Below are positions 21,824-64,000 of a DNA stretch of 64,000 bases, piece after piece (the stretch's first letter is position 1; the number at the start of each line of letters is the position of its first letter). Source of the stretch: Ignavibacteriales bacterium (GTDB lineage Bacteria; Bacteroidota; Ignavibacteria; UBA10030; SZUA-254); NCBI GenBank assembly GCA_016218025.1, contig JACRFD010000070.1, positions 2,745 to 66,744 on the forward strand, in the 5' to 3' direction. Below the pieces are notes generated by a model. It saw nothing but the letters and a program-made list of their open reading frames with translations. It was not told where the DNA came from and searched no databases. The position numbers and the translations under genes were made by a program.

Positions 21824-21896
<73 letters not shown>

Positions 21897-21970
21897 CAGA
21901 AATTTATTTACATTTCAAATATCTCAATTGATTTTTATAAATCATATTTATAATTTGATCTGCCTTTCTC

Positions 21971-22769: not shown

Positions 22770-23121
22770 GGGGATGATATGGTTTCGACGGGGATGAGAA
22801 TGGTCAGAATGGCATCTCGTGCTGTCCGAGTTGCACGTTAATAAAGCGGAAAACAATAAGTGCAGACAATAACTACGCACTGGCTGCTTAATTAAAGCAA
22901 CCCATCCATTATAATCATGCTCAACGGATTATAACTGGGTGTCGATTAAGTTGAGATAGTTTGATGATTTTCTCAGGTTCATTAAATGAAAATATACTGA
23001 GATAGCTTGTAACAACTGTGTTTGCTCCGGGAATTGCAGGTGAAATCTTTTGAGCAGACTATTGATGTAAATGTTCTGGTGGTTTTCTCTTCGGACCGGG
23101 GTTCGATTCCCCGCATCTCCA
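22770..23121 (+). ncRNA. ssrA: tmRNA (SsrA)
   Basis: 5' GGGGATGA...GGTTTCGACGGGG pairs with 3' ...GGTTCGATTCCCCGCATCTCCA (tRNA-Ala-like acceptor and T arm). The internal tag ORF GCAGACAATAACTACGCACTGGCTGCTTAA (22862-22891) encodes ADNNYALAA*. Confidence 0.9.
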
Positions 23122-23123
23122 CA

Positions 23124-23150
23124 AATACCGTCGATTGACGGTATTTTTTT
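23124..23150 (+). terminator. Rho-independent terminator after ssrA
   Basis: 9-bp stem AATACCGTC / GACGGTATT with loop GATT, followed by a T-run. Confidence 0.75.
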
Positions 23151-48000: not shown

Positions 48001-51000
48001 AGCAAGTTGGAATTGATTGTACTTGTATCTATACCGAAACCATTGAATGTAATTTCGATGTTTTGGGCTTGACCTGGCTGGATAGTTCCTGCGGAAGGAA
48101 TAACTGTTATACATTCTTGAATACCATCATCGATCTGATACAATGTCGGTGACCAACTCGAATTAACCCACCAAAGATCTTGACCATTATGCGCCAGACT
48201 ATATGAACCACAACATCCTAAATCAAATTCTTTTATGATATTTATACCACTATTCACGATTGATAATTGCACAACACGCCCACCATCTGTTGTGCCCCAT
48301 AAGTTTCCGGAACTATGCTGTGGAACCCACACCATCCCGGTTAACCAATAAGGTAACCCGGTAATTGTTTCGATTACATCACCCGAATAATCAACACGAT
48401 ATAAATTTCCACTCCACCATGGCGTTGCTACAAAATACTCGCCATCCCATGTTAAAGTATGCGGTGATCGAGTGTGTAACGAAAATGAGCCTATCCTATT
48501 TCCATTCAAATCGTATCCGTAAACGTTACCACTATTATTTCCTATCCAGAGATATCTTCCATCTGAAGTAATTCCCCAAGCATTATAATGGATTGTAAAA
48601 CCTCCAACAACACTTTGTGTTTTTACATCATAAATTTGAATTCTACTATTACATCGATCAACTACATAGATTTTGTTGCCTAACCAGACCATGCCATAAT
48701 TACAATTTGGAAAGTTTAAATATGTCCTGATGATATTCCCAACACTTGAGATTGTTCTTTGTTCTTGAGAAGATTTAGATAATAACTCTTCAATATTATT
48801 AACGGTATCAGGACGTGATTCGTCTGCGTAGAAACCAATTTTATTTTCGTGTAAGACTGAAGGTTGACGTAATTTTGTTTTGGGTGTTATCGCTGAAATT
48901 ATTTGGTTCAAATCGATGTTGAACGTTAAATCGCTTTCGCCAGTATTGCTTATGTTAATTTGTTGAACATCGGTATCACCGGAGTATATTGTTGCTGAGA
49001 GTGAAAGTGGTGAGACCGAGATATTAGCCGGAGCATAACGGCTGCCAAAATTAAATCCGGTTGTATCTTCTCCCCCAACTATCTCAATCGTGTAACTACT
49101 CGAGGCAAGCGGAGATGTTTGCGCCCAATTGTTTTGTAATTCAAGACTTATAGTGTATGAACCGGGTAAGAAGATATTAAGATTATAATTTCCATTTGCA
49201 TCTGTAAGAGTAGAGCCATTTGCAGTGCCAGAAAATTTTATTTTCCAACTCTCTAAAAATCCCTCACTCCCATCTTTTATACCGTTGTTGTTTTCATCGT
49301 TCCAAACGATACCACTAACAATACTTTTATTCGATGGTATTTCCATGATATATCGAAAACCACCGCCATCTGTACCATTGTTCCACTTGCCCGTCTCGCC
49401 ATAATTAATATATCCATAAAGTTCTCCTCCTCCATTTGGTTCACCCGGATACCAGTTCGTATAAATTAATTCTTCCCCTGTTATCCAGCACCAATTACCT
49501 ATGTTATTCTCATCTGTGAGTCCAATACAAAATTGTTCATAAGGGGATAAATTGGCTATAAAATTATTTTCCTCAGCACTTCCGATTGTAACCAAATGAC
49601 CGCCGCTTGCTTCGCAATCAGCTTTTGCTTCTTGCCAAGATTTTCCGAATTTTGAAACATAATAACGGCTGCCGTTGAATTCCCCCGCAAAAGTAAACAA
49701 ATCAAAATTGATTTCAGTATGGTTACCGAAATTAATATCTGTTAGTTGTTGGCCCTCTGCCAGTGAAATATTATATGATCCTGAGATCGAAGGATATGTT
49801 TGAGTCCAGTCGGTTTTATTTTCTCCACTGATGACGTAGCTGCCTGAATTCAAATACCAAAATGTATAATTACCATTTACATCGGTAATTGTTGAATCTG
49901 TTTTATCTCCGCTAAGATATACTTTCCAGTTTGGTAGTCCGGATTCATCAATATCTTTAATACCATCGCCATTTAAATCATTCCAAATAAGTCCACTAAT
50001 CTTACTCCGACTTAATGGTATTTCCATGATATAACGAATATTCTGATTATTTGGGGCATCATTCCATCGCCCGAGTTCGCCGTAATTTGTATGAACATAA
50101 TGTTCAATTCCACCTCCATTATTTGGTTCCCCCCACCACCAATTAGTGTAAATAGTTCCTTCACCAGTAACCCATTGCCAAGTCCCTTCTACTGATTCAT
50201 CTGTATATCCAATCCAATATGTTTCAGACGGAGAAATATTGGAAACAAAATTATTTTCATCAGCACTTGAAATTGTTACTAAATGCCCGCCGTTTGCTTC
50301 GCAATCTGACTTTGCGTCATGCCAATATTTTGCATTTGTTGAGATGTAATATTTACTTCCATTAAACTCACCGGCATAAGTAAATAAGTTGGGATCAACA
50401 GCAGGTGGTTTATTACCGAAGTTTTTATCTGTAACATTTGCTCCCGCAGTGATTTCAACATCATAGCTACCCGGTGCGGATGGATATGTTTGCGTCCAAT
50501 CTGTTTGCTGGGTCTCGGATATTGTATATGTCCCTAACGGTAAATATGAGAATGTATATTCACCATTTGAGTTGGTTGTGGTAGAACTATTTATCAGACC
50601 AGAAATATTTATCGTCCAATTTGCTATACCTGGTTCGCCGGATTGTCTTACTCCATCTCCGTTAATATCCCGCCACTTTAAGCCGCTGATTGAACCAGTT
50701 AAAGAAGTTAATCCATCAATCTCTAAAATATATTTGGTTGCATAACTTTCATTTACATCATGCCATTTTCCCAATCCAGTATAATTTGTTACGCAATGAT
50801 TTTCACCAGTTCCTCCTCCTGGCTCAGTCCAATCCCAACCGGTGAAACTAACTAATTCTCCAGTCAGCCATCTCCAATCACCTTCGGTTAATTGATCAGT
50901 AAATCCTATATAAGCCACTTCAGAACTTCCCAAGCCGCCCACAAAATTATTTTCTTCTCCGCTTGAAATTGTAACTAAGTGACCTCCATTCGTTTCACAA

Positions 51001-53558
51001 TCGGTCTTAGCTTCATTAAATGTTTTCGTAGTATTTGAAACAAAGTATGTGTGTCCGTTGTATATACCGCCAAAAGTAAACAAGCTTGGATCAACCACAG
51101 GTGGTCTAATTCCAAAATTAATATCAACAAGGTTTTCGCCAGGCTGCAGATTGATTGTATAACTGGTTGGTGAATTAGGAACTGTTTGAGACCAACCATG
51201 CAACGGATTTTCGCTGATTACATAATTCCCAGTTTGCAAATCGAAAAATGTGTAATTTCCACTAGCATCTGTTATGGTTGAATCTGTCCTGTCACCTGAA
51301 ATATAAACCTTCCAATTTCCCAAAAATGGCTCTGCAATATCTTTAATACCATCACCATTATCATCTTGCCATAGATTTCCTGTGATTGAGCCAGGGTTCC
51401 AACCGTTTTCATGGTAAAGCGAATCGATCTCTGTATCGTTCAATGCACGGTTGTAAATTCTTATGTCATCTATTTCACCCGAAAACCAATTACCATTACC
51501 AAGATTTGTACCATCGACGGCGCCAAAAGCATAAATCATTTTATAACCATAATCTGATGGAACTAATCTGGTTGCTGTAAGACTTGATGCCGATTTGGAC
51601 CCATTCAGATAGCCTTCCAATTTTTGAACCGATTCATCATATTTTAAAACAACGTGATTCCATCTACCTAACTGTACTTTTCCAATAGAAATTGGCATCA
51701 TTCCGTAAACATCTATATAAACACTTATTTTTACTTCACCATCATCCATAATTTCAATTTGGCTATCATGCCAATTATCATTAGGTGTTTCCTGTCCGAG
51801 CTCAGAGACGATGACTCCTCCGGATGTAGCTTTAAACCAAACTGAAAGTGTTACCGTTTTTCCAGAAATAGAACTTTTTAGGTCAGGTGTAATTATATAA
51901 TTATTTGTTCCATTAAAATGATAAGATGCCATTGCTATGTTAAATCTATCATCTGTTAACGTAACTCCATAAGCGTTACTATTATTTCCATTACCACTTA
52001 CATCACCTGCATTGCCATTGAATGGATAATACGCAACAAGTCTTTCTGTGGGGTTAACAATTTGCTCTGTATTTACTTTTAAAAACTTTAAACTTGCCTG
52101 AGAAAGAGGGCGGAGATCTCCGACTGATATATTTTCACTAGCACCAGGTATAGCATCTTCTTGATACGTTAAGTATAACCAATCGCTGTCATTTACTGTC
52201 GGATTGAAATTAGAGATGGAAACATATCTCTCATCAATATCGTTTGTGTTTGTTAAATTACGAACATTACCCCAGCTAAAACCACCGTCAGTGCTGTTTG
52301 TGTAAATTATATCTGAATAATGAAATCCCTCTGAATCAACAACACCTTCTAAATGGGCGCTACATGCAATGAATATATTATCGCCTGCTGCATTTTTCCC
52401 GATAGAAGGTTGATGAAACGAAAAAGTATGATCTGTTTGGTCGGTATTATCGTTACGTTTTAGCATCGGAAAGTTTAGGCTGTCTATCACAGTCCGTAAA
52501 CTCATACTATACGAATCCCACAACCTAATTTTTGAAGTAACATACGGAACATCGCCGTTAACAATTTGCCCACCGCACGAAACTATATATAAGGTTGTAC
52601 CTATATACATCAAATCGAATCCCCCGAAATAAAAATAATCGTCAGGATTTTTTAAGATTGAATTAACCGGTCCCCAGGTTAATCCGTTATCGAATGATTC
52701 CGAATATCTGATTGTGTAATCGGCAAAATTATCGGCGAATGCAAACCATGCAGCGGCTATTCTACCATCCGAACCAACTGCTAATCCTGTTCGTGCACTG
52801 CCAGTACTCATAGTATCCAGAGGTACCCAATCTGAGAAACCAGTAATACTATTGTAGGTTGTGGAATAAATACCAGCCCGTGGACTTTGTCGACCAGCCA
52901 GAATAATTAAATCACCGTTCTGCATAACCTTAATCTGCGGCCAATCTGGATTGCTTGTATCAAAAGGAGTTGGAGAATAAATAGCTTCACTAAAGATTCC
53001 TCCCTCATCGTTTTGCAAATTTAATGTCGTTGCAAGATCATAAGATAGAGTCGGATTCTGGGCATGATTAGCAACAGCAGCAACATATTGACTACCGCCA
53101 TTGGGTTTCAAAGTTAATGAAGGATATCCCGATCGTTCATAGAGACCATAATTTAGAAACTGTGGAGTTCCCCATGTTTCCCCGCCATCACTTGAATAAT
53201 TATACGCCGTCCTTCTTGATGAAGAAACATTCTCACTATCGGTTGCAACCATCATTATTGCATGGATAGAATTTGGATTCAGCGGGTTTACTTCAAGGTA
53301 CTCTAGTTGTCCGCCATTAGTTTGAAAATCCCAGTAACCTGTAATACCGGTTGAAATACCTTTTCCATTTAATGAGGCACTCTGCCTTGGCGGAGTATTA
53401 TTTCTCCATTTTAACATGGTAGTTGGATTTGATTCTTTGATAGGTCCTTTGTCTATTAAATATTCACGGGGAATAATCCGGGATGAGTTAATAGTTTGAG
53501 TGGCAGCTAAATTGAAGATTAGAACCGAGGAAACAAAAAATAAATAGAATTTTTTCAT
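39057..53558 (-). CDS. Giant (4,833 aa) T9SS-sorted multidomain surface or secreted protein. Domain order: BNR propeller, LamG, 3x(SdrD-B + C-type lectin), two propeller regions flanked by Ig-like domains, 5 beta-helix modules, shared C-terminal region, CTD
   Basis: A single uninterrupted 14.5-kb ORF. Signal peptide 'MKKFYLFFVSSVLIFNLAATQ'. Asp-boxes 'SSDGGETWG', 'SFDNGLTWG' and 'STDGGFSWG'. LamG 'LVAYYPFNGNAGD...IDDIRIYNRAL'. CTLD 'DCE(T/A)NGGHLVTISS...W(I/Y)G(F/Y)TD...W(R/Q)W'. Beta-helix repeats 'NN.I.G' ending in 'NWWGD'. CTD 'NYPNPFNPTTVISYSLP...LILMK'. Confidence 0.85.
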   Translation of the reverse strand: MKKFYLFFVSSVLIFNLAATQTINSSRIIPREYLIDKGPIKESNPTTMLKWRNNTPPRQSASLNGKGISTGITGYWDFQTNGGQLEYLEVNPLNPNSIHAIMMVATDSENVSSSRRTAYNYSSDGGETWGTPQFLNYGLYERSGYPSLTLKPNGGSQYVAAVANHAQNPTLSYDLATTLNLQNDEGGIFSEAIYSPTPFDTSNPDWPQIKVMQNGDLIILAGRQSPRAGIYSTTYNSITGFSDWVPLDTMSTGSARTGLAVGSDGRIAAAWFAFADNFADYTIRYSESFDNGLTWGPVNSILKNPDDYFYFGGFDLMYIGTTLYIVSCGGQIVNGDVPYVTSKIRLWDSYSMSLRTVIDSLNFPMLKRNDNTDQTDHTFSFHQPSIGKNAAGDNIFIACSAHLEGVVDSEGFHYSDIIYTNSTDGGFSWGNVRNLTNTNDIDERYVSISNFNPTVNDSDWLYLTYQEDAIPGASENISVGDLRPLSQASLKFLKVNTEQIVNPTERLVAYYPFNGNAGDVSGNGNNSNAYGVTLTDDRFNIAMASYHFNGTNNYIITPDLKSSISGKTVTLSVWFKATSGGVIVSELGQETPNDNWHDSQIEIMDDGEVKISVYIDVYGMMPISIGKVQLGRWNHVVLKYDESVQKLEGYLNGSKSASSLTATRLVPSDYGYKMIYAFGAVDGTNLGNGNWFSGEIDDIRIYNRALNDTEIDSLYHENGWNPGSITGNLWQDDNGDGIKDIAEPFLGNWKVYISGDRTDSTITDASGNYTFFDLQTGNYVISENPLHGWSQTVPNSPTSYTINLQPGENLVDINFGIRPPVVDPSLFTFGGIYNGHTYFVSNTTKTFNEAKTDCETNGGHLVTISSGEENNFVGGLGSSEVAYIGFTDQLTEGDWRWLTGELVSFTGWDWTEPGGGTGENHCVTNYTGLGKWHDVNESYATKYILEIDGLTSLTGSISGLKWRDINGDGVRQSGEPGIANWTINISGLINSSTTTNSNGEYTFSYLPLGTYTISETQQTDWTQTYPSAPGSYDVEITAGANVTDKNFGNKPPAVDPNLFTYAGEFNGSKYYISTNAKYWHDAKSDCEANGGHLVTISSADENNFVSNISPSETYWIGYTDESVEGTWQWVTGEGTIYTNWWWGEPNNGGGIEHYVHTNYGELGRWNDAPNNQNIRYIMEIPLSRSKISGLIWNDLNGDGIKDIDESGLPNWKVYLSGDKTDSTITDVNGNYTFWYLNSGSYVISGENKTDWTQTYPSISGSYNISLAEGQQLTDINFGNHTEINFDLFTFAGEFNGSRYYVSKFGKSWQEAKADCEASGGHLVTIGSAEENNFIANLSPYEQFCIGLTDENNIGNWCWITGEELIYTNWYPGEPNGGGELYGYINYGETGKWNNGTDGGGFRYIMEIPSNKSIVSGIVWNDENNNGIKDGSEGFLESWKIKFSGTANGSTLTDANGNYNLNIFLPGSYTISLELQNNWAQTSPLASSSYTIEIVGGEDTTGFNFGSRYAPANISVSPLSLSATIYSGDTDVQQINISNTGESDLTFNIDLNQIISAITPKTKLRQPSVLHENKIGFYADESRPDTVNNIEELLSKSSQEQRTISSVGNIIRTYLNFPNCNYGMVWLGNKIYVVDRCNSRIQIYDVKTQSVVGGFTIHYNAWGITSDGRYLWIGNNSGNVYGYDLNGNRIGSFSLHTRSPHTLTWDGEYFVATPWWSGNLYRVDYSGDVIETITGLPYWLTGMVWVPQHSSGNLWGTTDGGRVVQLSIVNSGINIIKEFDLGCCGSYSLAHNGQDLWWVNSSWSPTLYQIDDGIQECITVIPSAGTIQPGQAQNIEITFNGFGIDTSTINSNLLVISNDPDDDSITVSTTLNVIGAPNIYVTPSTITFDSTFVGYSKTDTLLVQNTGVQSLIIGNISSGNPSFSTDLSSFTLNPSGKQKLVVRFSPTTSGNITGNITFTSNDPSNGTYLIPVSGKAMHPPVIGVNPQTLSFTLLEGDSTTSSFIINNSGLGELQYDIENEFIFPVPPPVTNYKILSSIKNIKVAEPSRKYENVDDKSLEELTIPTALSSINNLGRRLFSVNGNKIYEIDLNTGNPIRAISLPTVTYWWMESGLAFSGQRLYVSNNYDSKIYIVDPFTGKVIKRYSQPPETIQDLAFVNGKLYALAPNSNTIYEMNPYDGAILRSIVPPVYIGGGMDGGNGRLFVSNYGNAIYELSLVDGSVINSWQPVNYIRSMGFCGDTLYASDQCITAKYNPNTGECYGSQSGLCKNGMLAGGTSVWLSESQITGVIQPGQNQQIDLKINAKELYGGNFNANLVVSSNDPVSPQKNVSASLTVTGIPDIAVMRDSIKFDSTYLNIGKIDSFFVRNTGTAELILNNITTNNSLFTATPSSLTIPVGTKGSIYVIFNPVEVGEFNASLTINSNDPDQPVSTVYLSGIGRLSPPSISGLKTVGVGGNYTTLKEAFDSINVCFISDTLRLKLLDTAYYEQSLLLYPIDNKPSAPPLIIEPQGIGKSTIYFEFTDTMEAPVGIHLINISNVQFNQLRFVLDTLHGWEAAVRMEELCPNISFTNITLDGGNVYNGFETWGYNSSLTLNNDTIQNVGQCLYAAGSTAIDLRNSFLANNADASVWLETENGSINIENNKFDGKGIAATAIGGYASGSFLNINKNDISGFIGGIFMDGFSGIRPDYKTKKNFTETNSATLNHKALREKIQAKINALKSRDRNQVKLTAKQKYIENTKNPDRKNRTVQSTGSAVSICDNKITATIDCGMYISVMDGPLTSLRIENNDVSGIGNWGGIVSEGIEVANDGFVKINDNKVSTNHYGGSGLAFYGLWEPKSIEVKNNFVVGKDTTIFSSNQKNNRSIQGYPVGNEGITLWGNNTWENGSSLNIDSNVVIGYYYGIYPFIYSDLVSIKDNNLKDGGIFIEDHAANHSNIEGNEIIDFSEAGIYTSNFYAFTPGIPNELSIKNNTIVGSDTLGSYVGIMSDGFESYRLLIENNSITGNYFGDGIMLGGVYSPEDYNYNLLSTNRSTNNNLPLKERILQLRSKMKSKDRKEIIAQSKLQHSKGMNTKNIQSQAPLTSSNSYLSISNNLINYAGAGMGPINIGEVQGPFTVNIENNDLRTVDGADCGLYLGPINGPVLDVNIKQNKYTGASGMGGIWVEGAEIYPSGSFIVRDNEINILSGDAGLWLGEIWEPKILEIKNNLVNASESMMMDYKQKISQMVSQINYPIGGDGIAFGGSNETLADSRVLVDSNRVNGFYFGIHPWYISSGQISLSNNTLVDGGIWCEDELRGGSLSINRNQISEFSEAGIWFNGFMVDRAGEGGLNILNNTIIGSDTSGGYVGIYNEYVESNYLKVENNSINGNYQGDGIMLGSFTGTGPIFTGKANVKVSNNYAPASISLKDRVTQKYQKMHQRDLSQLKSETEQRWRDRKIKKSNATNRVKSTNDYTMLSIKNNTINYAGGGMGPMSISEMNGGGAIDIIDNSFLSSEASDVGMYMGWFSGTGRIWIKNNIINNPGHQGIGIDGGEIATGGDFIVRENNVRTNGGWGIWLGECYGPTNFNVSNNSVIAIDPFSLQGKNRKMEPSDLRNYPVGEEGITLYPTSEIDGCVVKYDSNTISGFNWAMHLHGYGPGQMSVCGNIIHDGCLYFCDDNMQHVKVDNNTITDFSEAGIQFFFYPWNEELHSSASVSRNKIIGSDTVGSWAGIYVMDVYAYTLNIDDNNISGNYDGDGITIENFYTPEQWLTSKSNKMQMSLSSPTSRERYNKLKERFKAQKIREKDRDIKKIWAERKASNLTTPKPFSPLSEVSALSIQRNQILNRGFGMGSINIFGSGNVQNIFVNDNLATPTGETDAGIYLGYWEEVKNVDIERNVIKNTLGIGLWIDVIQFHPGGEFKIRSNDIQIYGGTGLWLGEIYEPLKFDIMNNSVKAVVQTMQPLAVYSLQKNSIKSSNTIIGEEGIAVYPFNETSGSSFILSSNLVQNFDVGINLVVSGFEQVILSRNQANNNRIGFQWEGACLNSTISTNIEGNILTKNIETGLSINLNDYFCPMTIDLNSLSENDSVGLFVGGSGTMPIVTNNTLLETNKYSLWNETEKNIAARFNWWGDSTTKRMSTLPYPSNIDKIHDSFDDPTKGFVVYKDWLSNSPGGSSISGLIYNDINGNGIQDSSEVGIIGYAVFIDLNSNDTLELGERYTSTDFYGNYQFSNLGFGTYRIRQVMQGGWVQTTPKPLDIKISIDTAITGVNFGNRAFTGFGYTFVGQSGSNWSNPGNWSGSKVPGPTAFVKVPENVTVFVDSLPFDTIAALEINWRGKLKFDSTVGILKTYLQVHNDGTIEFPESENSGMVCFGDFINHNTIIPGKSRVIFVGDNPKLIHSSTFYNLEILGENTGTAGNLTVNNLITLDKDLEQRQTDTLIILKNRSDALIGDGVIKEGTIIRNIAEGDTSIYRFESKSSSIKFDGTGIYPSKIMVSTLIDSSLTDPDELWETIQSYIDTAKNIVSANCVNKFSKWRFGIPRPRIVNNNPLVNRLYTIEAFGGSNFCSNLSLRYEQTEIPFGVREDSLSLFRSLHTEVEKSITAGWNIISLPVRVRDNQKTSIFGNSNTSAFAYEGRYVNKEFLYPGVGYWIKYNNSENVTISGSPILIDTIEINFVGWNLIGTIYTPVPVNNIISIPPQMTTSGFFDFDGQYRQVDTLKPGRGYWVKVDQPGKLILAEGEILSFGSKINIIPTSELPPPHPDEKNIDNVIPSEFKLNQNYPNPFNPTTVISYSLPVDCRVTLKIYNLLGQEVKTLVNEYQDAGNKSVEWNANSLPSGVYMYRLNAEKYSDVKKLILMK
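41130..46250 (-). repeat. Intragenic tandem array of five right-handed beta-helix modules (about 1.0-1.1 kb each) separated by four Lys/Arg-rich linkers
   Basis: The linkers lie at about 45305-45465, 44330-44470, 43210-43375 and 42145-42295, for example 'LKERILQLRSKMKSKDRKEIIAQSKLQHSK'. Each module restarts with 'LSI.NN.INYAG.GMGP' and ends 'NNSI.GNY.GDGI'. Confidence 0.7.
49035..51390 (-). repeat. Intragenic alternating array of 4 SdrD-B-like and 3 C-type lectin domains
   Basis: CTLDs lie at about 50712-51085, 50030-50395 and 49335-49715 ('F(T)(F/Y)(G/A)GE(F)NGS.YY(V/I)S...(R/K)YI(M/L)EI'). They are interleaved with 'SG(L/I).W.D.NGDGIKD...NFG' domains. Confidence 0.7.
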
Positions 53559-54415: not shown

Positions 54416-54665
54416 ATGATCGGTAAAACAATATTCCATTATAACATAGTAAAGAAATTGGGCGAAGGCGGACTTGCCCGCCGGAGCCAAATTCACATCA
54501 AAGGTTCATTCGATGGTTGGTAAGACTATCTCACATTATAAGATATTAGAAAAGCTCGGCGAAGGCGGACTTGCCCGCCGGAGCCAAATGCACATCAGAG
54601 GTTCATTCGATGGTTGGTAGCACTATTTCGCATTATAAAATTTTAGAAAAGCTCGGCGAAGGCGG
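54416..54665 (+). repeat. 97-bp tandem repeat (2.6 copies) comprising the kinase start codon and first 19 codons plus a 41-nt GC-rich spacer
   Basis: ATGs at 54416, 54513 and 54610 are exactly 97 nt apart. The units encode 'MIGKTIFHYNIVKKLGEGG', 'MVGKTISHYKILEKLGEGG' and 'MVGSTISHYKILEKLGEGG'. The spacer ACTTGCCCGCCGGAGCCAAAT(T/G)CACATCA(A/G)AGGTTCATTCG is present twice. Confidence 0.85.
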
Positions 54666-57186
54666 GATGGGTGTAGTTTATAAAGCAGAGGATACTAAAC
54701 TTGGCAGATGTGTAGCCATGAAGTTTCTTCCACCTCATGTAGGTACAGATGAAGAAAAGAAATCACGCTTTATCCAGGAAGCCAGAGCTGCCTCAGTAAT
54801 CGATCATCCGAACATTGGTGCAATCTACGAGATTAACGAAACACCAGACGGGTCGATGTACATTGTAATGGCATGTTACGATGTAGAATCACTTAAGGAT
54901 AAAATAGAAAAAGGACCTCTTGAGATAAATCAAGCAATTGATTACTCACTCCAGATTGCAAATGGAATGGTGAAAGCCCATGAGCGTGGAATTATTCACC
55001 GTGATCTTAAGCCAGGTAATGTTTTAATAACAAATGATGGCATAGCAAAGATTATAGATTTTGGACTTGCAAAACTATCAGGAGGAATGCAGCTTACAAG
55101 AAGCGGTACAACGCTTGGAACGGTTGCATATATGTCACCCGAGCAGACACGCGGTGAAAATGTTGATGAACGATCAGACATTTGGTCGTTAGGCATAATG
55201 CTGTTTGAGATGCTGACAGGTAAGCTCCCATTTCGTGGTGAGTTCGATGCTGCAATGGTGTACTCGATTACGAACGAAAATCCTATTTCGGTGGAAACAT
55301 TTAGAACATCCATCCCATTTGATCTCAAGCTTATCATAGCACGGGCATTGGAAAAAGATGTTAATAATCGATACCAGCGAATGGAGGAGATTGTTGCTGA
55401 TCTAAAAAAATTACATTTAAGAAACCAAACGGAAATAATTGCAACAGACGATTCTTCCTCTGATTGGAATACTGTAACAAAAACAATCAGATACATGGCA
55501 AAAAAACATACAGTATCTTTTATTTGGATACCTGCTATAATTCTAATTCTTTTCGTTGTATTCTTTCTCGCAAAATCATTTTTATTCAAACCGCCACCAA
55601 GCACATTGAGTAAGTCGATTGCTGTTTTACCCTTTATTAATCTCGGAGAATCAGAGCAGGTATATTTTGCTGATGGTTTTGCGGAAGAAATAACAGAGGA
55701 ACTTTCAAAGCTATCCCAAATTTTGGTCATCTCACGGCAAAGCTCCGGATATTTTAAAAATTCAAAACTTCAAGATAGCATAATTGCCGATCAACTTGGC
55801 GTAAGATACTTGTTGAAAGGCGAATTGCAACTCGCAGTTATGCGAGTAAAATTGAAATTGTCGTTGTTCGATAGTCACTCAGCCCGCGAGGTTTGGAAAA
55901 AACCATATGATTTTGCACGGGGGGAGATAATAGATATCAAACAAGATATTATTAAAGAAATAGTCGCTCAACTCGATATTGAACCGTCAGCAGTGCGTCC
56001 TCTAAGCTACAAACCATCGGCAGATGTTTATAATACATATCTTCAGGGATTATATCACCGTGATAAATTAACTAAAGATGAAAATACGCTTGCAATAACT
56101 TTTTTCCAAGAAGCGATCAGGAAAGATACTAATTTCATTCCCGCTTATGTCGCACTTGCCAACACCAAGATAGAACATTATCGACAGGCTTGGGATCTAT
56201 CTCCCCAGTACTTAACTGACGCAAGAAAGTATTGTGAAAAAGCTATACAGGCGGATACGAACGACCATCAAGCGTTAGCTCAGATCGGAATAATCACCGA
56301 TTTGGAAGGTAATCCAAAAGCGAGTGTTGATATACTTCAAAGGTCCATAACAAAAGATAAAAACAATGCCATCGCTTTAACGTCTATCGCTTGGATATAT
56401 CTTTTTGAATTAGGGGAACCTGCAAAAGGTGTCATGTATCTAAAACAGCTTGAGGAAATAAATCCTTTCGATTGGCTGACGGCGATGAATTTAGGTGTTG
56501 CTTATGCCCAGATGAAAAATTATCCGGAGGCAATAAAATCGTTTCATCGTGCTGTACAATTAAATCCTACAAACGAATTACCGATATATTCTCTTGGATA
56601 CGCTTATGAACGAATTGTCCAAATCGATAGTGCAATTTATTATTATCAAACTGCTCTCAAAATAAATTCTATGAACTCAAAAACTTACGAAGCGCTGAAT
56701 TCTATTTTGCTAGCAATTAACAATTATGCAAAAGCCGAGTCGCTTATGTCCCAGGGAGTTTTTTTATTTCAGGACGATTATAATATTTTTTATGGGTTAG
56801 GTGTTGCCAATCTTCTTAATAATAAAAAATTCGAAGCAAGTAAGACATTTAACGATGGTTTAAATATTGTAGAATCAGAGATTAAAAAGAATCCAAGAAA
56901 TGGCGACCTGTATGCAATTGCAGGATTATTTAATGCACGTCTTGCAAACAAAAGTGCAGCATTACTCGCAATCAATAAAGCTGTTAAGCTCGATTCAACA
57001 AACGAAGAAGTTATCATGAAAGTAACTCGAGCATATGCAGTATTGGGACAGAAAAGCGAAGTGTTGGAATGGTATAAGCGTGCTAAATCTATGAATCCTG
57101 AATACGATGCCGCCTACTTAAGAACTGCTATGGATTTTGAAAAATATAGGAATGATCCTGACTTGCTATCGATAGCACGCCAGTAA
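54610..57186 (+). CDS. Ser/Thr protein kinase with a TM helix, TolB-N/FlgO-like periplasmic module and TPR repeats
   Basis: 'LGEGGMGVVYKAED', 'HRDLKPGNVL', 'DFGLAK' and 'GTVAYMSPEQ'. A TM helix 'VSFIWIPAIILILFVVFFL'. 'IAVLPFINLGESEQVYFADGFAEEITEELS'. C-terminal TPRs. I prefer the ATG at 54610 over the track TTG at 54571. Confidence 0.85.
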   Translation: MVGSTISHYKILEKLGEGGMGVVYKAEDTKLGRCVAMKFLPPHVGTDEEKKSRFIQEARAASVIDHPNIGAIYEINETPDGSMYIVMACYDVESLKDKIEKGPLEINQAIDYSLQIANGMVKAHERGIIHRDLKPGNVLITNDGIAKIIDFGLAKLSGGMQLTRSGTTLGTVAYMSPEQTRGENVDERSDIWSLGIMLFEMLTGKLPFRGEFDAAMVYSITNENPISVETFRTSIPFDLKLIIARALEKDVNNRYQRMEEIVADLKKLHLRNQTEIIATDDSSSDWNTVTKTIRYMAKKHTVSFIWIPAIILILFVVFFLAKSFLFKPPPSTLSKSIAVLPFINLGESEQVYFADGFAEEITEELSKLSQILVISRQSSGYFKNSKLQDSIIADQLGVRYLLKGELQLAVMRVKLKLSLFDSHSAREVWKKPYDFARGEIIDIKQDIIKEIVAQLDIEPSAVRPLSYKPSADVYNTYLQGLYHRDKLTKDENTLAITFFQEAIRKDTNFIPAYVALANTKIEHYRQAWDLSPQYLTDARKYCEKAIQADTNDHQALAQIGIITDLEGNPKASVDILQRSITKDKNNAIALTSIAWIYLFELGEPAKGVMYLKQLEEINPFDWLTAMNLGVAYAQMKNYPEAIKSFHRAVQLNPTNELPIYSLGYAYERIVQIDSAIYYYQTALKINSMNSKTYEALNSILLAINNYAKAESLMSQGVFLFQDDYNIFYGLGVANLLNNKKFEASKTFNDGLNIVESEIKKNPRNGDLYAIAGLFNARLANKSAALLAINKAVKLDSTNEEVIMKVTRAYAVLGQKSEVLEWYKRAKSMNPEYDAAYLRTAMDFEKYRNDPDLLSIARQ

Positions 57187-59474: not shown

Positions 59475-59990
59475 TTATTTCCTTGTCAGCTTCACGCGCG
59501 CGAAGGGTTGAAGTTTTCCCTTCACTTCATTATCCATCTGCCATTGCCAGGTATCTGTACTTCTGATGTACACGAATGTTGTGTGGAAGATGCTGCCGTC
59601 ACTGCCTTTGAATAAGAACGCAAGCTTATCCACGCTCCGTTTTGCATGACCGATTGCCTGAGCCGAGAGACCTCCGCCGCCTGTCACGTCGAGCCAAAGA
59701 CAAGCGTACCTGCTCGATGGTTGGTCCCAGCCGATATAAACGATTGCTTCATACTCCGCTTCACCATTAGCGTTCTTTTCGCGTGAGGTTTCGTGAAGTT
59801 GCAGGTACTGATGACCCAGCACCCATTCTGCGATGATATCGTGTATAGTTTCTTTTCCATCTATGGTTCCCTTAAGAACCCACGTCCCTGCCATATGATC
59901 AAGCAAGGAATCCTGAAATGTCGTTTGCTGCGCCAACATGGGTAACGAAACCAAAATAACTAATAAGATGATTTTCATGATTGTTTTCAT
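59475..59990 (-). CDS. Secreted protein, DUF1579/lipocalin-like (tentative)
   Basis: I chose the ATG at 59990 ('MKTIMKIILLVILVSLPMLAQQ' signal peptide). The track start at 60119 would overlap the upstream gene. 'MAGTWVLKGTIDGKE' resembles DUF1579. Confidence 0.5.
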   Translation of the reverse strand: MKTIMKIILLVILVSLPMLAQQTTFQDSLLDHMAGTWVLKGTIDGKETIHDIIAEWVLGHQYLQLHETSREKNANGEAEYEAIVYIGWDQPSSRYACLWLDVTGGGGLSAQAIGHAKRSVDKLAFLFKGSDGSIFHTTFVYIRSTDTWQWQMDNEVKGKLQPFARVKLTRK

Positions 59991-60075
59991 TGTATGCTTC
60001 CTTAAATAAATGTGATGGGCTATTCTAAGGCAACTTTTTCCTTTTTTAAAGTGGTTAGGTGGTAACAAGAAAATA

Positions 60076-60747
60076 TCACCACTTAAATTTTGGCCATTCT
60101 TCGAAGTCGATAGAATCATTTAGCTTAATACCTTTTTGCCCAACCATTGATTTCAGATTCTCTGTAAAAGAACTATAATCTTTTGAACCAAATGAAATCA
60201 TTCTAAGAATATCAGGAAGTAATTTAAAGCGGTCTTTGCCTGATTTCCCTCGAGTAACATATTCTTGTGAGCAAGAATAAATAAAATCAAAATTATATTG
60301 AGTTGGAAACCCACCGAAAGAAGTATACCAATCTATACACCATTTTCCAGTTATTGGGTCATATGATTTCAAAGCCTCTTCAGCGCATGCTTCTAATCTA
60401 AAAATATCGGCTTGATGTGATTTACTTGTTGGATGATAGGCAGCTAGCCGTCGCAACAAACCAAGCTGAACGAGAAATATTGGCCAGAGAATTTTCACCC
60501 CGTAATACAACACTTTTTCATCTTTATAATGAGTAGAGTCAAGGATCTCTCTGTGTCGTTGGTATGCATGTCGAATGTCATATGCAAGATAGAGAACAAA
60601 ATCTGATAACTTATCCTCGATTAAATCAAGTTCAGCAAGTTCGTGGATGGTTGTGTGAAGATTTTTTAGATCCCAGTAGTCGCCATACAATATAATTCCT
60701 GCGCCGTATTTTGTTGGTTTTGAAAATAACATAAAACACAAAAGCAA
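60076..60747 (-). CDS. Hypothetical cytoplasmic protein of unknown family
   Basis: 223-aa ORF that follows the 60749 gene with a 1-nt gap. The start is TTG 60747 or ATG 60732. Trp/Tyr-rich, with no recognised motifs. Confidence 0.5.
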   Translation of the reverse strand: MLLCFMLFSKPTKYGAGIILYGDYWDLKNLHTTIHELAELDLIEDKLSDFVLYLAYDIRHAYQRHREILDSTHYKDEKVLYYGVKILWPIFLVQLGLLRRLAAYHPTSKSHQADIFRLEACAEEALKSYDPITGKWCIDWYTSFGGFPTQYNFDFIYSCSQEYVTRGKSGKDRFKLLPDILRMISFGSKDYSSFTENLKSMVGQKGIKLNDSIDFEEWPKFKW

Positions 60748-60748
60748 T

Positions 60749-61261
60749 TTAGTTGGATGATGTCCTTTTTTCTATCTTTGTCTTCGCTATCTTTATTGCG
60801 TCAAGAGCATCCTGCTTGGACTTAAATGTATAGTTTGCTAGGATTCTTCCTTGTTCGTTATCGATATTGCTAGTTGGGAAAAATTTCATATTGAAGAATT
60901 TCTCGTAGAGCAAGATGAACTGAATTAGATTCGAGTATGCAGTCGAGATAATATTGAGGAGCTCTGGGTCATCAATCCACTTGATCTCGCCACCATCTGA
61001 AAAAGACTTCCACGATTCTATTCGAAGATAATTGTACGTACTGAAAATATTGTCATCTATTTTGACGAGGGCGGTAAGATTGTAGTCAAGCTCGTTCTTG
61101 ATCAAGTTAAGGATTAACTTAGATCGTTTTTCCTTTTCGGCAAAGCGCAATTTTTCCTGCCTGCTTTGTGCGTATTTTTCAAGTTTGATTGCACCTACGA
61201 GAGCAAGTGCAACACCTAGTACCGTAGAGAGAAAGTCAGACCAAAATTGAGAAAAGTCCAT
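60749..61261 (-). CDS. Hypothetical N-terminally membrane-anchored protein
   Basis: One TM helix 'FLSTVLGVALALVGAI', a charged helix 'EKYAQSRQEKLRFAEKEKRSK', then a roughly 110-aa domain of unknown family. Confidence 0.5.
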   Translation of the reverse strand: MDFSQFWSDFLSTVLGVALALVGAIKLEKYAQSRQEKLRFAEKEKRSKLILNLIKNELDYNLTALVKIDDNIFSTYNYLRIESWKSFSDGGEIKWIDDPELLNIISTAYSNLIQFILLYEKFFNMKFFPTSNIDNEQGRILANYTFKSKQDALDAIKIAKTKIEKRTSSN

Positions 61262-61396
61262 TCTAATGCTTTTATGAATAAAGTGCCTTGGTGCAAACTG
61301 ACTGTAATTATCCTGCCATATTGCCTGATAACATTCTTGTGGCAGAAAATGCAGGGGTAAAATACTATTCTTATCTTAGAAAGTCAACTTGCCCAA

Positions 61397-61443
61397 GTGC
61401 GACTCACTTCCACCCCAGATCCATAATTGAAAGTGAGTCGCAC
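61397..61443. repeat. GTGCGACTCAC-type palindromic element, copy 3
   Basis: Perfect 13-bp stem GTGCGACTCACTT / AAGTGAGTCGCAC. The loop (CCACCCCAGATCCATAATTGA) is unrelated to copies 1 and 2. The C-to-T change in the left arm is matched by G-to-A in the right arm. Confidence 0.8.
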
Positions 61444-61488
61444 ATCCATTCAAGCAAAATAATATTTATCTTGTCTAGATGAATCACA

Positions 61489-61544
61489 GCTGTCACGGTC
61501 CATACCGTGACAGCCTCCTTCGGTCACGAAATGGTTCGTGACCG
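61489..61544. repeat. Two back-to-back perfect hairpins. The second is a GTCACGAA/TTCGTGAC-type element
   Basis: GCTGTCACGGT-CCAT-ACCGTGACAGC (61489-61514) and CGGTCACGAA-ATGG-TTCGTGACCG (61521-61544). Confidence 0.75.
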
Positions 61545-61691
61545 CTAAACAGTTTCTTAAATCATTTCATTTACTAACCAATTATTGAAAGAACTCTCTC
61601 CCATCCAATCAGCAATCCAATGAATAGATCAGAAGTTCTTGCAATCAATATTTGCATTTTATTTGGGAAAGTAGTAAAATAAGCAAAATTG

Positions 61692-61745
61692 AACCGCTCC
61701 CGTATAAAGTTTTTATTAAACTTATTGGAGCGGTTTTGTTTTTTC
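61692..61745 (+). terminator. Terminator-like hairpin plus T-tract inside the long non-coding region
   Basis: AACCGCTCC, a 26-nt AT-rich loop, GGAGCGGTT, then TTGTTTTTTC. No credible ORF lies upstream of it. Confidence 0.3.
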
Positions 61746-61895
61746 TGAATTTCATACAAAATCTAAAATTTCCCGTTGCCAATTCCTCTGGCAGCGCAGT
61801 ATATCTCCCCTTTCATCATCTGTTTTCAACCCTTGTTTATCAAATTCCTCCAATTCATATAAATTTCATTAATCGGTTGACTTGTTTTATAAAAT

Positions 61896-62294
61896 ACAAG
61901 ACAACTTTTCCAAAAAACATGTCTGTTATTCCCAAAAACAAAACAACATTTTCTAAAATCAAGTCTGTTCTTCTAAAAAACAAGTCAACATTTATAAAAA
62001 ACAAATCTGTTTTCTTCATAAACAGGACAACATTTTTATTAAACAGACTTGTTTTAGCTGAAAACAAATCAACATTTACGAAAAACAAGTTTGTTTTTCT
62101 AAAAAGCAAGTCAACATTATTAGAAAGCAGAACAACTTTTGTAATAAACAAGTCTGTTTCTCTTGGGAACAGAACAATTTTTTCGAGAAACAAGTCATCA
62201 TTCCCGCAAAACAGATCAACTTTATCACGATTCAAGTTTGTATTCACGTTAAACAAATCACCTCCTATAAAAAGCAGGTGAACATTTATAAAAA
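61896..62294. repeat. Array of 19 tandem 21-bp repeats in perfect register, with partial 42-bp superperiodicity
   Basis: Every unit is exactly 21 nt. The consensus is ACA(A/G)(G/A)TC(A/T)(A/G)(C/T)(A/T)TTT....AAA. Units 1-11 alternate between '..CAAC(A/T)TTT' and '..(C/T)TGTT' forms. The latter build the dyad AAACA-AGTC-TGTTT. The array ends 80 nt before the FN3 gene ATG. Confidence 0.9.
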
Positions 62295-62374
62295 CTTAAT
62301 CAATTTCAATTACAAACAAGACATCCTACATCGGAGTCAAACCGGTGAGGAGATTTGAAAGGAGCAATAATATC

Positions 62375-62998
62375 ATGGGTAAAATAAAATTAAATTTGCG
62401 CAATCTGAATGTAACAGAAAAAATACAGTTCGCACGTCAGATTGTAACAGGAATAACAGGCAATGCATCGTTCCCCACACCCGATCCACCGCTTGCAACA
62501 ATAACAAACTGTGCAACCGATCTGGAAAATGCTTTCAACGATGCTAATGTTGCAAAGCAAGAAGCAAATACAAAGGTTTCTATTCAGGACGGAAAAGAAA
62601 ATGTTTTGGATATCAATCTTCAAAAGCTTGCCAACTATGTTGAAAGTGCAAGCAACGGCGACGATGCAAAAATACAAAGCGCAGGTATGAGCATTCGCGC
62701 AAAAGGTGTCCCGATTGGTGCGCTTTCTTTGCCATCTGCTTTATCTGCTACGGCAGGCGCTAAGGAAGGCGAAATAGTTTTAAGATGGGATCGTGTTACA
62801 GGTGCAAAGAGTTACATAGTTGAACAAAGTGCCGATCAAATTACATCAACAAGCTGGAAGTATGCAGGTGTATCAACAAAAGCGAGCATAATTATTTCAG
62901 GTTTAACGAGCGGAACGAAATACTGGTTCCGTGTTGCAGGTATTGGTGCAGCCGGGCAAGGCGCATGGAGCGATCCGGCAACAAAGTATGCACCTTAA
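62375..62998 (+). CDS. Helical-N-terminus + fibronectin type III domain protein of unknown function
   Basis: I prefer the ATG at 62375 (AAAGGAG 10 nt upstream) over the track GTG at 62345. The FN3 domain reads 'GEIVLRWDRVTGAKSYIVEQS...LTSGTKYWFRVAGIGAAGQGAWS'. There is no signal peptide. Confidence 0.7.
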   Translation: MGKIKLNLRNLNVTEKIQFARQIVTGITGNASFPTPDPPLATITNCATDLENAFNDANVAKQEANTKVSIQDGKENVLDINLQKLANYVESASNGDDAKIQSAGMSIRAKGVPIGALSLPSALSATAGAKEGEIVLRWDRVTGAKSYIVEQSADQITSTSWKYAGVSTKASIIISGLTSGTKYWFRVAGIGAAGQGAWSDPATKYAP

Positions 62999-63008
62999 TT
63001 CCCTTTTC

Positions 63009-63047
63009 GTCACGAAATCCTCTGCGGCTTAGGCAGAGGTTCGTGAC
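63009..63047. repeat. GTCACGAA/TTCGTGAC-type element with a nested inner hairpin, 11 nt after the FN3 gene stop
   Basis: GTCACGAA-AT-CCTCTGC-GGCTTAG-GCAGAGG-TTCGTGAC. The outer arms match 61522-61543. No T-tract follows. Confidence 0.7.
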
Positions 63048-63094
63048 CGCCATGCATATTTATACTAAAATAATAATTCCGATAGCTCGGATAT

Positions 63095-64000
63095 CTATTT
63101 CGAAATTATTTTCAAAGCGTTCGCTCCATTGGCGCAGTAGATGATATCAATTTTTCCGGTTGATTCAACGACAACATTCGACGACTTTGATTTAACTGAT
63201 ACGGGAAGTTTTTCTGCCACCAATGCACCCGTTTTATTTCTTGTGAGATATAATTCGGAAGTTGAAAGATTGGTGTAACTGATATATGCTTTCCCGTTAA
63301 CATCTGTGGCAATGCCTGCCTCGGTCCAATTAGCTAAAGAATCTATCTTCGCAATCACACCGTTATTGTAAATATTCAAATGTTTATCGTCATAATTCCA
63401 ATAAGGTATAAGAACCGAGCCGTTTGTTTTATTTATTGCAATATCGGGTGACCATCCCTTATCATCACCGGAACTCGGAACACCAACGATGATATTATTA
63501 CTGCTCAAGGTGCCGGTTGAAGTGATCGTTTGAAGATGAAGTGTTCCTTCACCGCCATGTTCATAGGCAACATAAACGTTATTACTCGCATCTAAGGCAA
63601 GTCGTGGTCGAACATTAGCCCAGTAAGAACCAATCCGTGCAGGACTGCTCCATGCACCCGAAAGATTGTTTGTATAAAGTAAATCTGTACCGTCGTTACC
63701 GTAAGTGATATGCACTTTTCCTGTTGATGTTACGGCAATGCCGCATCCACTCAAGGATGATCCGACTGAATAGGCAATTTTTGTTTTTATCCATGTACCG
63801 CTTTTATTTGTTGCATACATTATCGCAGAAGTGTCGGTTATCGTTTGTCCAACCACATTGTAAACGATATGAACAAATCCGCTTCCATCAACAGCTATAT
63901 CATTATACACCGACATGGTTGTAGAGATATTCTCAGGATGGATCATGGTTGTAACCCAAGAGCCGGATTTATTTGTTGCATATTTTAAACCGAGGTTGAA
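63095..64000 (-). CDS. Repeat (beta-propeller-like) protein, 5'-truncated by the window edge
   Basis: The frame stays open past the track ATG to nt 64000 ('FNLGLKYATNKSGSWVTT' precedes 'MIHP'). A roughly 45-aa repeat 'G..HI.Y.......L.YATN.SG.W' recurs. Confidence 0.6.
   Translation of the reverse strand, partial: FNLGLKYATNKSGSWVTTMIHPENISTTMSVYNDIAVDGSGFVHIVYNVVGQTITDTSAIMYATNKSGTWIKTKIAYSVGSSLSGCGIAVTSTGKVHITYGNDGTDLLYTNNLSGAWSSPARIGSYWANVRPRLALDASNNVYVAYEHGGEGTLHLQTITSTGTLSSNNIIVGVPSSGDDKGWSPDIAINKTNGSVLIPYWNYDDKHLNIYNNGVIAKIDSLANWTEAGIATDVNGKAYISYTNLSTSELYLTRNKTGALVAEKLPVSVKSKSSNVVVESTGKIDIIYCANGANALKIISK

Follow-up and report, generated by a model that had tools for sequence, protein, structure and literature searches.

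Tandem 21-bp repeat arrays with dyad-symmetric units accompany an orphan FN3-domain gene in several bacterial phyla

A 64,000-nt stretch of DNA from an Ignavibacteriales bacterium (contig JACRFD010000070.1 of assembly GCA_016218025.1, positions 2,745 to 66,744; hereafter, the window) carries a long tandem array of 21-bp repeats upstream of a gene for a 207-amino-acid (207-aa) protein with a C-terminal FN3 domain. Arrays of the same period, each with its own unit sequence, precede homologues of this gene in at least four phyla, and the array appears to be a genuine and hitherto undescribed element of DNA control or assembly. A two-turn period that is kept while the sequence is replaced, dyads in the units, symmetry between the strands, a position upstream of the promoter and units specific to a lineage or a paralogue are together best fitted by an array of dimer sites in double-stranded DNA. 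Tentatively, we favour a row of helically phased dimer-binding sites that would nucleate a cooperative nucleoprotein complex.

Specifically, each unit would consist of a dyad-symmetric protein-binding site of ~14–16 bp and a spacer of 5–7 bp, recurring every 21 bp. Because 21 bp corresponds to two helical turns, all sites would lie on one face of the helix, and dimers bound at neighbouring sites could touch and form a single cooperative nucleoprotein filament or wrap. Array, promoter, leader and FN3 gene together would make up a self-contained module, solitary in varied contexts and present in several copies per genome. We infer that a protein binds the array, and that the most likely role of this binding would be either to silence or activate the module's strong promoter over a distance or to provide an assembly platform for the module's own product or an unlinked factor. 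Full-text literature searches found no description of the array–gene pairing, and no Rfam family matched it.

Repeat units and their counterparts in other phyla

Laid out in rows of 21 nt, the 19 units of the window array follow one another without an indel or phase slip over 399 nt (Table 1). C2 and A3 serve as register markers in 19 of 19 units and A20–A21 in 18 of 19, and the register is kept although 30–40% of the remaining positions vary between units. Per-position information is high at AAACA and TTT and low at positions 15–19, which are nearly free. In units 1–11, the form ACA(A/G)(A/G)(A/T)CAAC(A/T)TTT alternates with ACAAGTCTGTT, giving a 42-bp superperiod. The latter form contains the dyad AAACA-AGTC-TGTTT, the form ACAAGTCAACA is a direct arrangement in which the second half-site is flipped relative to the dyad form, and in unit 8 the dyad is turned around (AAACAGACTTGTTT). 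The program TRF reported periods of 21, 42 and 84 nt, and a separate run added a higher-order period of 126 nt. Both the alternation of two forms and, by eye, the 126-nt period are also present in an 80%-identical relative (L089; L numbers denote homologous or metagenome loci compared with the window's own locus).

The core array is flanked by a unit 0 with an inverted core, GACTTGTTTT (61875–61895), and by two degenerate units, 20 and 21 (62295–62336). A degenerate unit motif matched 13 times in the window compared with 1.1 expected, and 12 of the 13 matches lie inside the array. Unit 19 ends at 62294 and the ATG of the FN3 gene occupies 62375–62377, leaving 80 nt between them. An independent Logan assembly (L088) matches 1663 nt of the window, the whole array among them, with 0 mismatches, but may stem from the same reads. 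An earlier note on this DNA, made from the sequence alone, had described an indel-free array in two alternating forms with a 42-bp superperiod, embedded dyads, an inverted dyad in unit 8 and an end 80 nt before the gene; the row layout, TRF and the coordinates bear out each of these points.

Homologues of the gene were searched in 185,579 species-representative genomes, one per species, yielding at least 352 loci. The best 80 of these belong to Ignavibacteriota/Bacteroidota, Acidobacteriota (Pyrinomonadaceae and Blastocatellia), Planctomycetota and Verrucomicrobiota. Each 1.2-kb stretch preceding a gene was scored for self-similarity at lags of 6 to 63 nt, requiring at least 55% identity across 105 nt. 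The best lag was 21, 42 or 63 nt in 58 of 71 homologous loci, compared with 0 of 72 in the 1.2 kb downstream and 0 of 60 between −2600 and −1400. The array is thus kept in relatives of the gene, and its absence there, which the earlier note had named as counter-evidence, is not what the search found. TRF rows in the upstream regions were dominated by the same series (period 21, 120 rows; 42, 40 rows; 63, 25 rows; 84, 9 rows; 20 and 22, 4 rows each). The arrays comprise 4–22 units and end 0–650 nt, typically 120–300 nt, before the start codon. Even a distant homologue (L124; 29% identity), a chance find in a metagenome scan, has an array.

No other gene travels with the pair. When the open reading frames (ORFs) up to 5 kb to either side of 82 loci were compared all against all, no conserved neighbour emerged, and the contexts are unrelated: beside cas9, within a glycosyltransferase cluster or among housekeeping genes. 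The loci lie on large chromosomal contigs (up to 7.9 Mb) and on complete chromosomes, and some genomes carry two or more modules. The cas9 gene (L001, 15–3110; JGI contig Ga0394675_104071, which also carries L007) encodes Cas9_a, HNH_4 and RuvC_III domains, is divergent, lies at the contig end ~600 nt from the module and was not seen at other loci; the adjacency is probably coincidental. Many family members were found on contigs of only 1–3 kb, and at several loci no more than a few hundred bases separate the gene from the end of its contig; a plausible reason is that short-read assemblies break at the array.

A scan of metagenomes from the array side, with three CAAGTC cores at 21-nt spacing, returned 7-nt microsatellites mixed with heptad repeats of coding sequence and with repeats of unrelated kinds; a family member together with an array was recovered only at L124. 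Metagenome loci L139, L146 and L158, as well as L114 and L159, have long 21-nt arrays with dyad-like cores and no FN3-family gene, such arrays including AACCGTGCAAGTCGTTGCCCT in 19 copies and TTCCGCGGGGATGCAAGTCAC in 15. Some of them, L114 (GDCTDLx) and L159 (GSDDLTR), may be coding heptad repeats.

The family conserves the geometry of the unit and not its sequence. The unit consensus differs from lineage to lineage and between paralogous modules of one genome, so a specific 14-mer that had been put forward as a conserved core is not retained, each lineage having a unit sequence of its own. The exact two-turn period, to which the same note had attached significance, is the property kept across phyla. 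The unit consensus is dyad-symmetric at p ≤ 0.05 in 61% of 67 arrays, compared with 5% expected from column-permuted controls. Typical cores have arms of 4–6 bp around a centre of 0–6 bp, followed by a more variable spacer; examples are AAACAAGTCTGTTT in the window, TTACAAGCTTGTAA (L034), GCAAGCTTGC (L031), ACAGGCCTGT (L005), ATAGCAGTTGCTAT (L081), AAACCGAGTCGGGTTT (L027), AAACAATATTGTTT (L049) and TCATaCCGGAGCCGGATGA (L075). In L018, L036, L049, L070, L081 and L084, an asymmetric dyad centre is flipped or a block of units inverted. Unit similarity drops with protein divergence and is still visible at 50–65% protein identity, where cores are kept (L048/L075, L027/L029/L030 and L076/L081/L056) and their orientation to the gene is constant. 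The arrays of L068 and L083 do not align, yet the core AAAGGGAGTTACC is common to both.

Transcription, translation and intrinsic structure

In Acidobacteriota, a strong, readily recognisable promoter (A-tract GGAAAAA, TTGCC, N17, TAnnCT) lies at a fixed distance of ~107 nt (102–112) before the ATG in most loci, downstream of the array. A search located this promoter type in 20 leaders, at one site further upstream and, in antisense orientation, at one site inside an array (L034). On this promoter model, the array is therefore most simply regarded as untranscribed upstream DNA. The leaders themselves also contain recurrent elements. Between −100 and −20, TCACGCYCAAGT occurs twice in direct orientation in acidobacterial leaders (e.g., L021, L031, L037, L022, L025, L026, L028 and L041). 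These leaders also have a hairpin, GGGTACT-CACGCCCA-AGTACTCC, that varies in a compensatory manner (GGGGGACT...AGTCCCC in L026), and the whole is a candidate for a conserved leader RNA structure. In Planctomycetota, the leaders of L005, L048 and L059 (−90 to −15) have in common a structured element, (A)GAGGCTGTAACG...CTAACNGCCTCT, immediately ahead of the ribosome-binding site (RBS), and L059 has it twice.

An array that is transcribed could act as RNA, for example as a repeat-bearing leader or antisense RNA that serves as a sponge for an RNA-binding protein or as a 5′ untranslated region controlled by read-through. Such read-through is conceivable in the window's own subfamily, where the array is preceded, at 130–170 nt (130 nt in the window), by a conserved promoter of the sigma-70 type with a terminator hairpin, and the window array folds better than its shuffles (z = −4.9). 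The opposite strand, however, folds equally well (z = −4.5), because the units are quasi-palindromic. Base composition in the arrays is skewed neither in GC nor in AT with respect to the gene strand, and dyad mismatches show no excess of G/T over C/A (168 versus 150). Compensated double changes in the dyads do exceed expectation (75 versus 36), an excess attributable to inverted dyad centres and unit subfamilies. Many dyads have centres of 0–2 nt, which leave no room for a hairpin, and in Acidobacteriota no promoter of the recognisable type precedes the array. RNA hairpins were rejected, since wobble counts, strand skews and two-strand folding give no strand-specific signal. A known structured RNA was rejected as well: a scan of the window against Rfam 15 gave no match at the gathering score, 61200–63200 yielded no credible one at E ≤ 10, and no match at E ≤ 0.1 was obtained in three relatives (L001, L006 and L089). 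Considering the absence of a strand skew, a G-U signature and an Rfam match, we regard a function as RNA as improbable.

The coding potential of the arrays was considered in the same way. Two of the six frames of the window array are open, one on the plus strand and one on the minus strand, as follows by construction from repeats without a stop codon in their consensus. Among 58 arrays, a frame open over at least 90% of the array was found on the plus strand in 36 and on the minus strand in 31, and many arrays, including the AT-rich L032, L053, L059 and L064, have no open frame at all. The conservation profile of the window unit lacks codon periodicity, and neither ORF of the window array matched Pfam. 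Coding as a family feature was rejected on stop counts, open stretches, the conservation profile, Pfam and column-shuffle statistics. The arrays as a family are non-coding, as had been supposed at the outset: many have no open frame and both strands behave alike.

What might still be translated is the array of the window's subfamily, read on the plus strand as a heptad-repeat peptide, N-K-S-(V/T)-F-x-K. The plus frame is open across the array in the window, L089, L001/L007 and L006, with a common conserved stop; L089 and L001 have an ATG (MGI...) at its start, and gene callers annotate the frame; and column shuffling gives P(0 stops) = 0.046 for the window and 0.012 for the pooled loci. The value of 0.046 is not significant after six-frame testing, however, and L089 alone gives 0.41. 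The window lacks the ATG of its relatives, its only start being a TTG inside the upstream promoter, and the minus frame is open there too. Moreover, a 41-nt spacing in L001 and L006 places units in different frames, so that no heptad is conserved, and other AT-rich arrays have stops in all frames. Together with the missing codon periodicity and Pfam match, these points make a heptad peptide extremely unlikely.

A further explanation needs no sequence-specific recognition. In-phase bends in every unit would produce a curved or superhelical, AT-enriched upstream element that boosts or insulates a strong promoter or attracts a non-specific nucleoid protein. Using a wedge model with Bolshoy-Trifonov parameters, which is approximate, we predicted strong curvature for the window array (23 degrees per unit, end-to-end/contour ratio of 0.19, z = 2.8 compared with column-permuted arrays). 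Additionally, arrays are AT-enriched relative to their own loci (0.47 versus 0.53, lower in 52 of 64), the period is kept while the sequence changes, and acidobacterial promoters have UP-like A-tracts. By the same approximate model, however, the mean z across 64 arrays is 0.5, 22% of arrays exceed their controls, and the long arrays of L034, L026, L019 and L084 are predicted to be straight, so that predicted curvature is not general. Curvature thus may contribute in the window, where the strong bending expected earlier from phased A-tracts is predicted, and by this model it is not a property common to the arrays. It also leaves the dyad symmetry and the cores kept at 50–65% protein identity without explanation, and the distance and phase to the promoter vary. 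A purely structural role therefore appears rather unlikely.

The 207-aa protein and parallels with known systems

The protein encoded next to the array is the only one linked to it. A Pfam match identifies the FN3 domain, and an AF2 model with a pLDDT of 90.5 places a helix at residues 13–27, a 53-residue helix at 40–92 and then a short helix before the FN3 domain, all after an extended N-terminus with the pattern K-x-K-L-x-L. The family is uniform in length, with nearly all of 293 word-indexed homologues having exactly 207 aa, and the N-domain is present in 1130 clusters (50% identity). For the whole protein, only FN3 was matched by Foldseek (PDB and BFVD) and by sequence profiles (Pfam, NCBIfam and PDB); the N-domain alone (AF2 pLDDT 90.9) had no fold neighbour in PDB (best E = 5) and no Pfam or PDB-profile match. 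No signal peptide is visible by eye. The profile, AF2 and Foldseek searches gave no sign of a DNA-binding fold, and a ribbon-helix-helix (RHH)-like N-terminus was dropped as speculation without support. A phage, plasmid or defence origin was also rejected: viral contigs contained no full-length family member and only two partial FN3-domain matches, tail-protein matches in PHROGs were limited to the FN3 domain, PADLOC had no match to the protein and tblastn found none in 72,556 plasmids.

The module's own protein is nevertheless the obvious candidate reader of the array, because paralogous modules differ in unit sequence and nothing else is linked to them. It would then bind through its N-domain, which would represent a new dimeric DNA-binding or array-templated assembly module. 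The structural predictions give no support to the protein as a DNA-binding reader, and we consider self-reading unlikely, if attractive.

Several observations weigh against a row of dimer-binding sites. No array-binding protein was identified, and the only linked protein has no recognisable DNA-binding domain in Pfam, PDB-sequence or PDB-fold searches and belongs to a mildly acidic family (median pI 5.8). In Acidobacteriota, where the promoter is readable, its distance from the array ranges from 0 to 536 nt without helical phase (Rayleigh p = 0.7–0.9), unlike the sites of classical activators and repressors; helical phasing between array and promoter was rejected on this test, and the variable, unphased distance means that the array is not a conventional promoter-proximal operator. 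About 18% of loci have no clear array. L006/L007 contain one 41-nt spacing, so the 21-bp phase is not absolutely inviolable. The dyad arms are more conserved than the spacers, but this test is partly circular because the arms were picked among well-conserved columns. Finally, arrays turn over faster than promoter and gene, L018/L036 aligning only from about −20 and L081/L084 from about −180, so selection on the unit sequence may be weak in places.

Such turnover would also be shown by a hitch-hiking satellite, that is, a slippage-prone repeat that arose once before the ancestral gene and was kept by concerted evolution without any function. The arrays of L018 and L036 do not align even though the proteins are 88% identical, and neither do those of L081 and L084; copy number varies between 4 and 22, some arrays are 95–99% homogeneous (L080, L052 and L053), and the small inversions of dyad centres resemble mutational flip-flop. 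A neutral repeat, however, would lose its dyads, and its 21-bp period would not outlast the replacement of its sequence across four or five phyla. It would also gather indels, of which the window array has none over 399 nt despite 30–40% substitution, and the control regions of the same loci are without such repeats. A functionless satellite is accordingly a quite unlikely explanation, and dimer-binding sites remain our preferred one.

The earlier note had likened the geometry to iteron, centromere, operator and LytTR arrays. The phased two-turn sites agree with this likeness; no protein of the Rep, ParA/ParB/ParR or LytTR kind accompanies the array, however, so the iteron, centromere and LytTR readings are analogies and not memberships. 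Among plasmid centromeres, F sopC has 12 repeats of 43 bp with an inverted-repeat SopB site, R1 parC has 10 repeats of 11 bp, and pSK41 parC has 20-bp repeats bound by ParR dimers. Like these, the arrays are long tandem rows of phased, partly dyad-symmetric sites beside an accompanying gene, with copies that differ and are possibly orthogonal, and by analogy dimers at neighbouring sites would form one cooperative superstructure. Unlike them, they have no linked ParA/ParM/TubZ NTPase or ParB/ParR/TubR adaptor, are chromosomal, have a partner without a match to an RHH or helix-turn-helix domain and repeat every 21 bp. The iterons of theta plasmids (P1, F, R6K and pPS10) are 17–22-bp repeats ~two turns apart that abut an autoregulated rep promoter. 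Shared features are the two-turn spacing, a location directly upstream of the adjacent gene that overlaps its promoter, and sequences peculiar to each array. The present arrays differ in having no Rep winged-helix protein, no evidence of an origin, no match among the plasmids searched and 4–22 copies; moreover, iterons are direct repeats bound by monomers, whereas most units here are dyads.

These parallels would be more than formal if the array belonged to an element that is mobile or was once extrachromosomal, serving it in replication control or partition as an iteron or a centromere-like site. Tandem phased sites before a gene with an abutting promoter mirror the iteron–rep and parC–parR layouts, and the module is solitary and multi-copy in varied contexts and, in the window, bracketed by two copies of a hairpin. 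The searches within 5 kb on each side of the 82 loci found no linked Rep, ParA/ParM, ParB/ParR or relaxase gene, however, and both the plasmid and viral searches described above and the location of the loci in large chromosomal contigs and complete chromosomes speak against it. We consider such an origin very unlikely.

Two further types of site resemble the arrays in layout. The family of repeats in oriP of Epstein-Barr virus (EBV) comprises 20 units of 30 bp, each with an 18-bp palindromic site for an EBNA1 dimer and an AT-rich spacer, and acts as a tether and distance-independent enhancer. The palindrome-plus-spacer units, the long tandem array and the variable distance to the promoter are similar, and by analogy the protein that reads the array could itself be under its control; the differences are a eukaryotic virus, a 30-bp period and a known reader, EBNA1. 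ArgR operators consist of 18-bp palindromic ARG boxes 3 bp apart, equalling a 21-bp period, and LytTR sites of 9-bp repeats with a 12-bp spacer. The 21-bp centre-to-centre spacing on one helical face is common to all of these. ArgR and LytTR operators, however, have 2–3 sites and a family-wide consensus and overlap promoters in a fixed register, in contrast to 4–22 sites at a variable, unphased distance here, and the arrays have neither a common 9-mer nor a linked LytTR regulator. Some loci have a CRISPR-like look of repeat and variable segment, e.g., L083 with ~11 nt conserved and ~10 nt variable. The whole unit is only 21 nt, however, compared with repeats of at least ~23 nt plus spacers of at least ~21 nt in CRISPR, the units are dyad-centred and no cas genes are conserved nearby, so the array is not CRISPR-like, in agreement with the initial description. 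By comparison with these systems, the arrays would fall into the class of phased tandem binding-site arrays and would be unusual in it for being chromosomal, for conserving only geometry across phyla and for being coupled to an orphan FN3 gene.

Surrounding features and significance

The elements of the module in the window are listed in Table 1. The −10 block of the candidate promoter in units 17–18 is kept in L006/L007 and reads TATTAA in L089; a consensus scan did not list this promoter. Units 15–19 and the leader are 89% identical to those of L006/L007, compared with 74% for the coding region. The hairpin of the leader element is weak (−3.9 kcal/mol) and no better than shuffles.

Table 1. 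Coordinates of the array and accompanying elements in the window
Position	Strand	Feature	Basis
61651..61745	+	Promoter-like TTTGCA-18-TAAAAT (61651–61680), then strong terminator-like hairpin with T-run (61685–61745)	Fold, alignment
~61875..62336	.	Extended array with degenerate flanking units	Row layout
61896..62294	.	Core array, 19 × 21 bp, AAACA...TTT core and variable 5-nt spacer	Row layout, per-position counts, TRF, repeat families, motif enrichment
62243..62271	+	Candidate sigma-70-type promoter TTCACG-17-TATAAA, inside units 17–18	Good −10, weak −35; sequence inference
62329..62347	+	Leader element CATCGG-AGTCAAA-CCGGTG	Invariant in the window, L006 and L007
62358..62364	+	RBS AAAGGAG, 10 nt before the ATG	Similar AAGGAG sites before homologues
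62375..62998	+	207-aa protein gene, helical N-domain and C-terminal FN3	Pfam fn3, E = 1e-6
63008..63050	+	Hairpin directly 3′ of the stop codon, with 20-nt inner hairpin; shares GTCACGAAAT...GGTTCGTGACCGC with 61521–61545	

The promoter–hairpin unit upstream of the array folds at −22.2 kcal/mol over the hairpin and T-run (z = −4.8), and its L001 counterpart at −29.6 kcal/mol (z = −5.7). L001 (3420–3545), L006 (~4290–4420) and L089 (~190–300) have a conserved counterpart, TTGACT-17-TACAAT followed by an ~85-nt hairpin RNA. It matches nothing in Rfam, and no gene is there for the hairpin to terminate; the unit may be a small RNA or an insulator of the module in this subfamily, its membership in the module being uncertain. 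GTCACGAAAT...GGTTCGTGACCGC is common to two hairpins that flank array and gene, with no third copy in the window; the two may be REP-like elements, terminators or the trace of an insertion. Further upstream, at 61394–61445, there is a hairpin with a 16-bp stem, GTGCGACTCACTTCCA...TGAAAGTGAGTCGCAC. A counterpart with 79% identity lies directly 3′ of the FN3 stop codon in L006 (5629–5680), so this hairpin looks like a mobile, REP-like element.

Upstream of the module, and on the strand opposite to it, lie the gene for a DUF6904 protein (60076–60747, minus strand; E = 2e-33) and two unannotated small genes (60749–61261 and 59475–60119); none of the three is conserved beside other modules. The beginning of a Ser/Thr protein kinase-TPR gene (54571–57186) lies within a 97-nt tandem repeat (54461–54665; 2.1 copies with 92% identity). 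On the minus strand lie genes for a 4833-aa protein (39057–53558) with SdrD_B, C-type lectin, HYDIN-like Ig and beta-helix domains and a Por_Secre_tail, and for its 1283-aa neighbour (34730–38581); both are likely T9SS-secreted surface proteins. Por_Secre_tail proteins likewise lie beside the module of L001. The tmRNA gene (tag ADNNYALAA; 22770–23124) and tRNA-Lys(CTT) (21824–21897) are ordinary housekeeping RNAs.

If the proposed reading holds, the array represents a widespread non-coding DNA element, with 352 or more loci among the species-representative genomes and over 1000 protein clusters. What it conserves would be a geometry, a two-turn period with a dyad in each unit, tied to one orphan gene in mostly uncultured phyla, and it would add a chromosomal member to the long phased binding-site arrays otherwise known from plasmid and viral maintenance elements. 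The pairing would also offer a handle for assigning a function to the large family of "FN3 domain-containing hypothetical protein" entries, and the different unit sequences within one genome would be a natural system for studying protein–DNA specificity and the co-evolution of tandem repeats. Should the 207-aa protein prove to read its own array, cognate pairs of array and reader with orthogonal specificities would coexist in one genome, and a DNA-anchored row of 10–20 FN3 domains would constitute a chromosomal scaffold or self-regulating switch of a type undescribed in bacteria.

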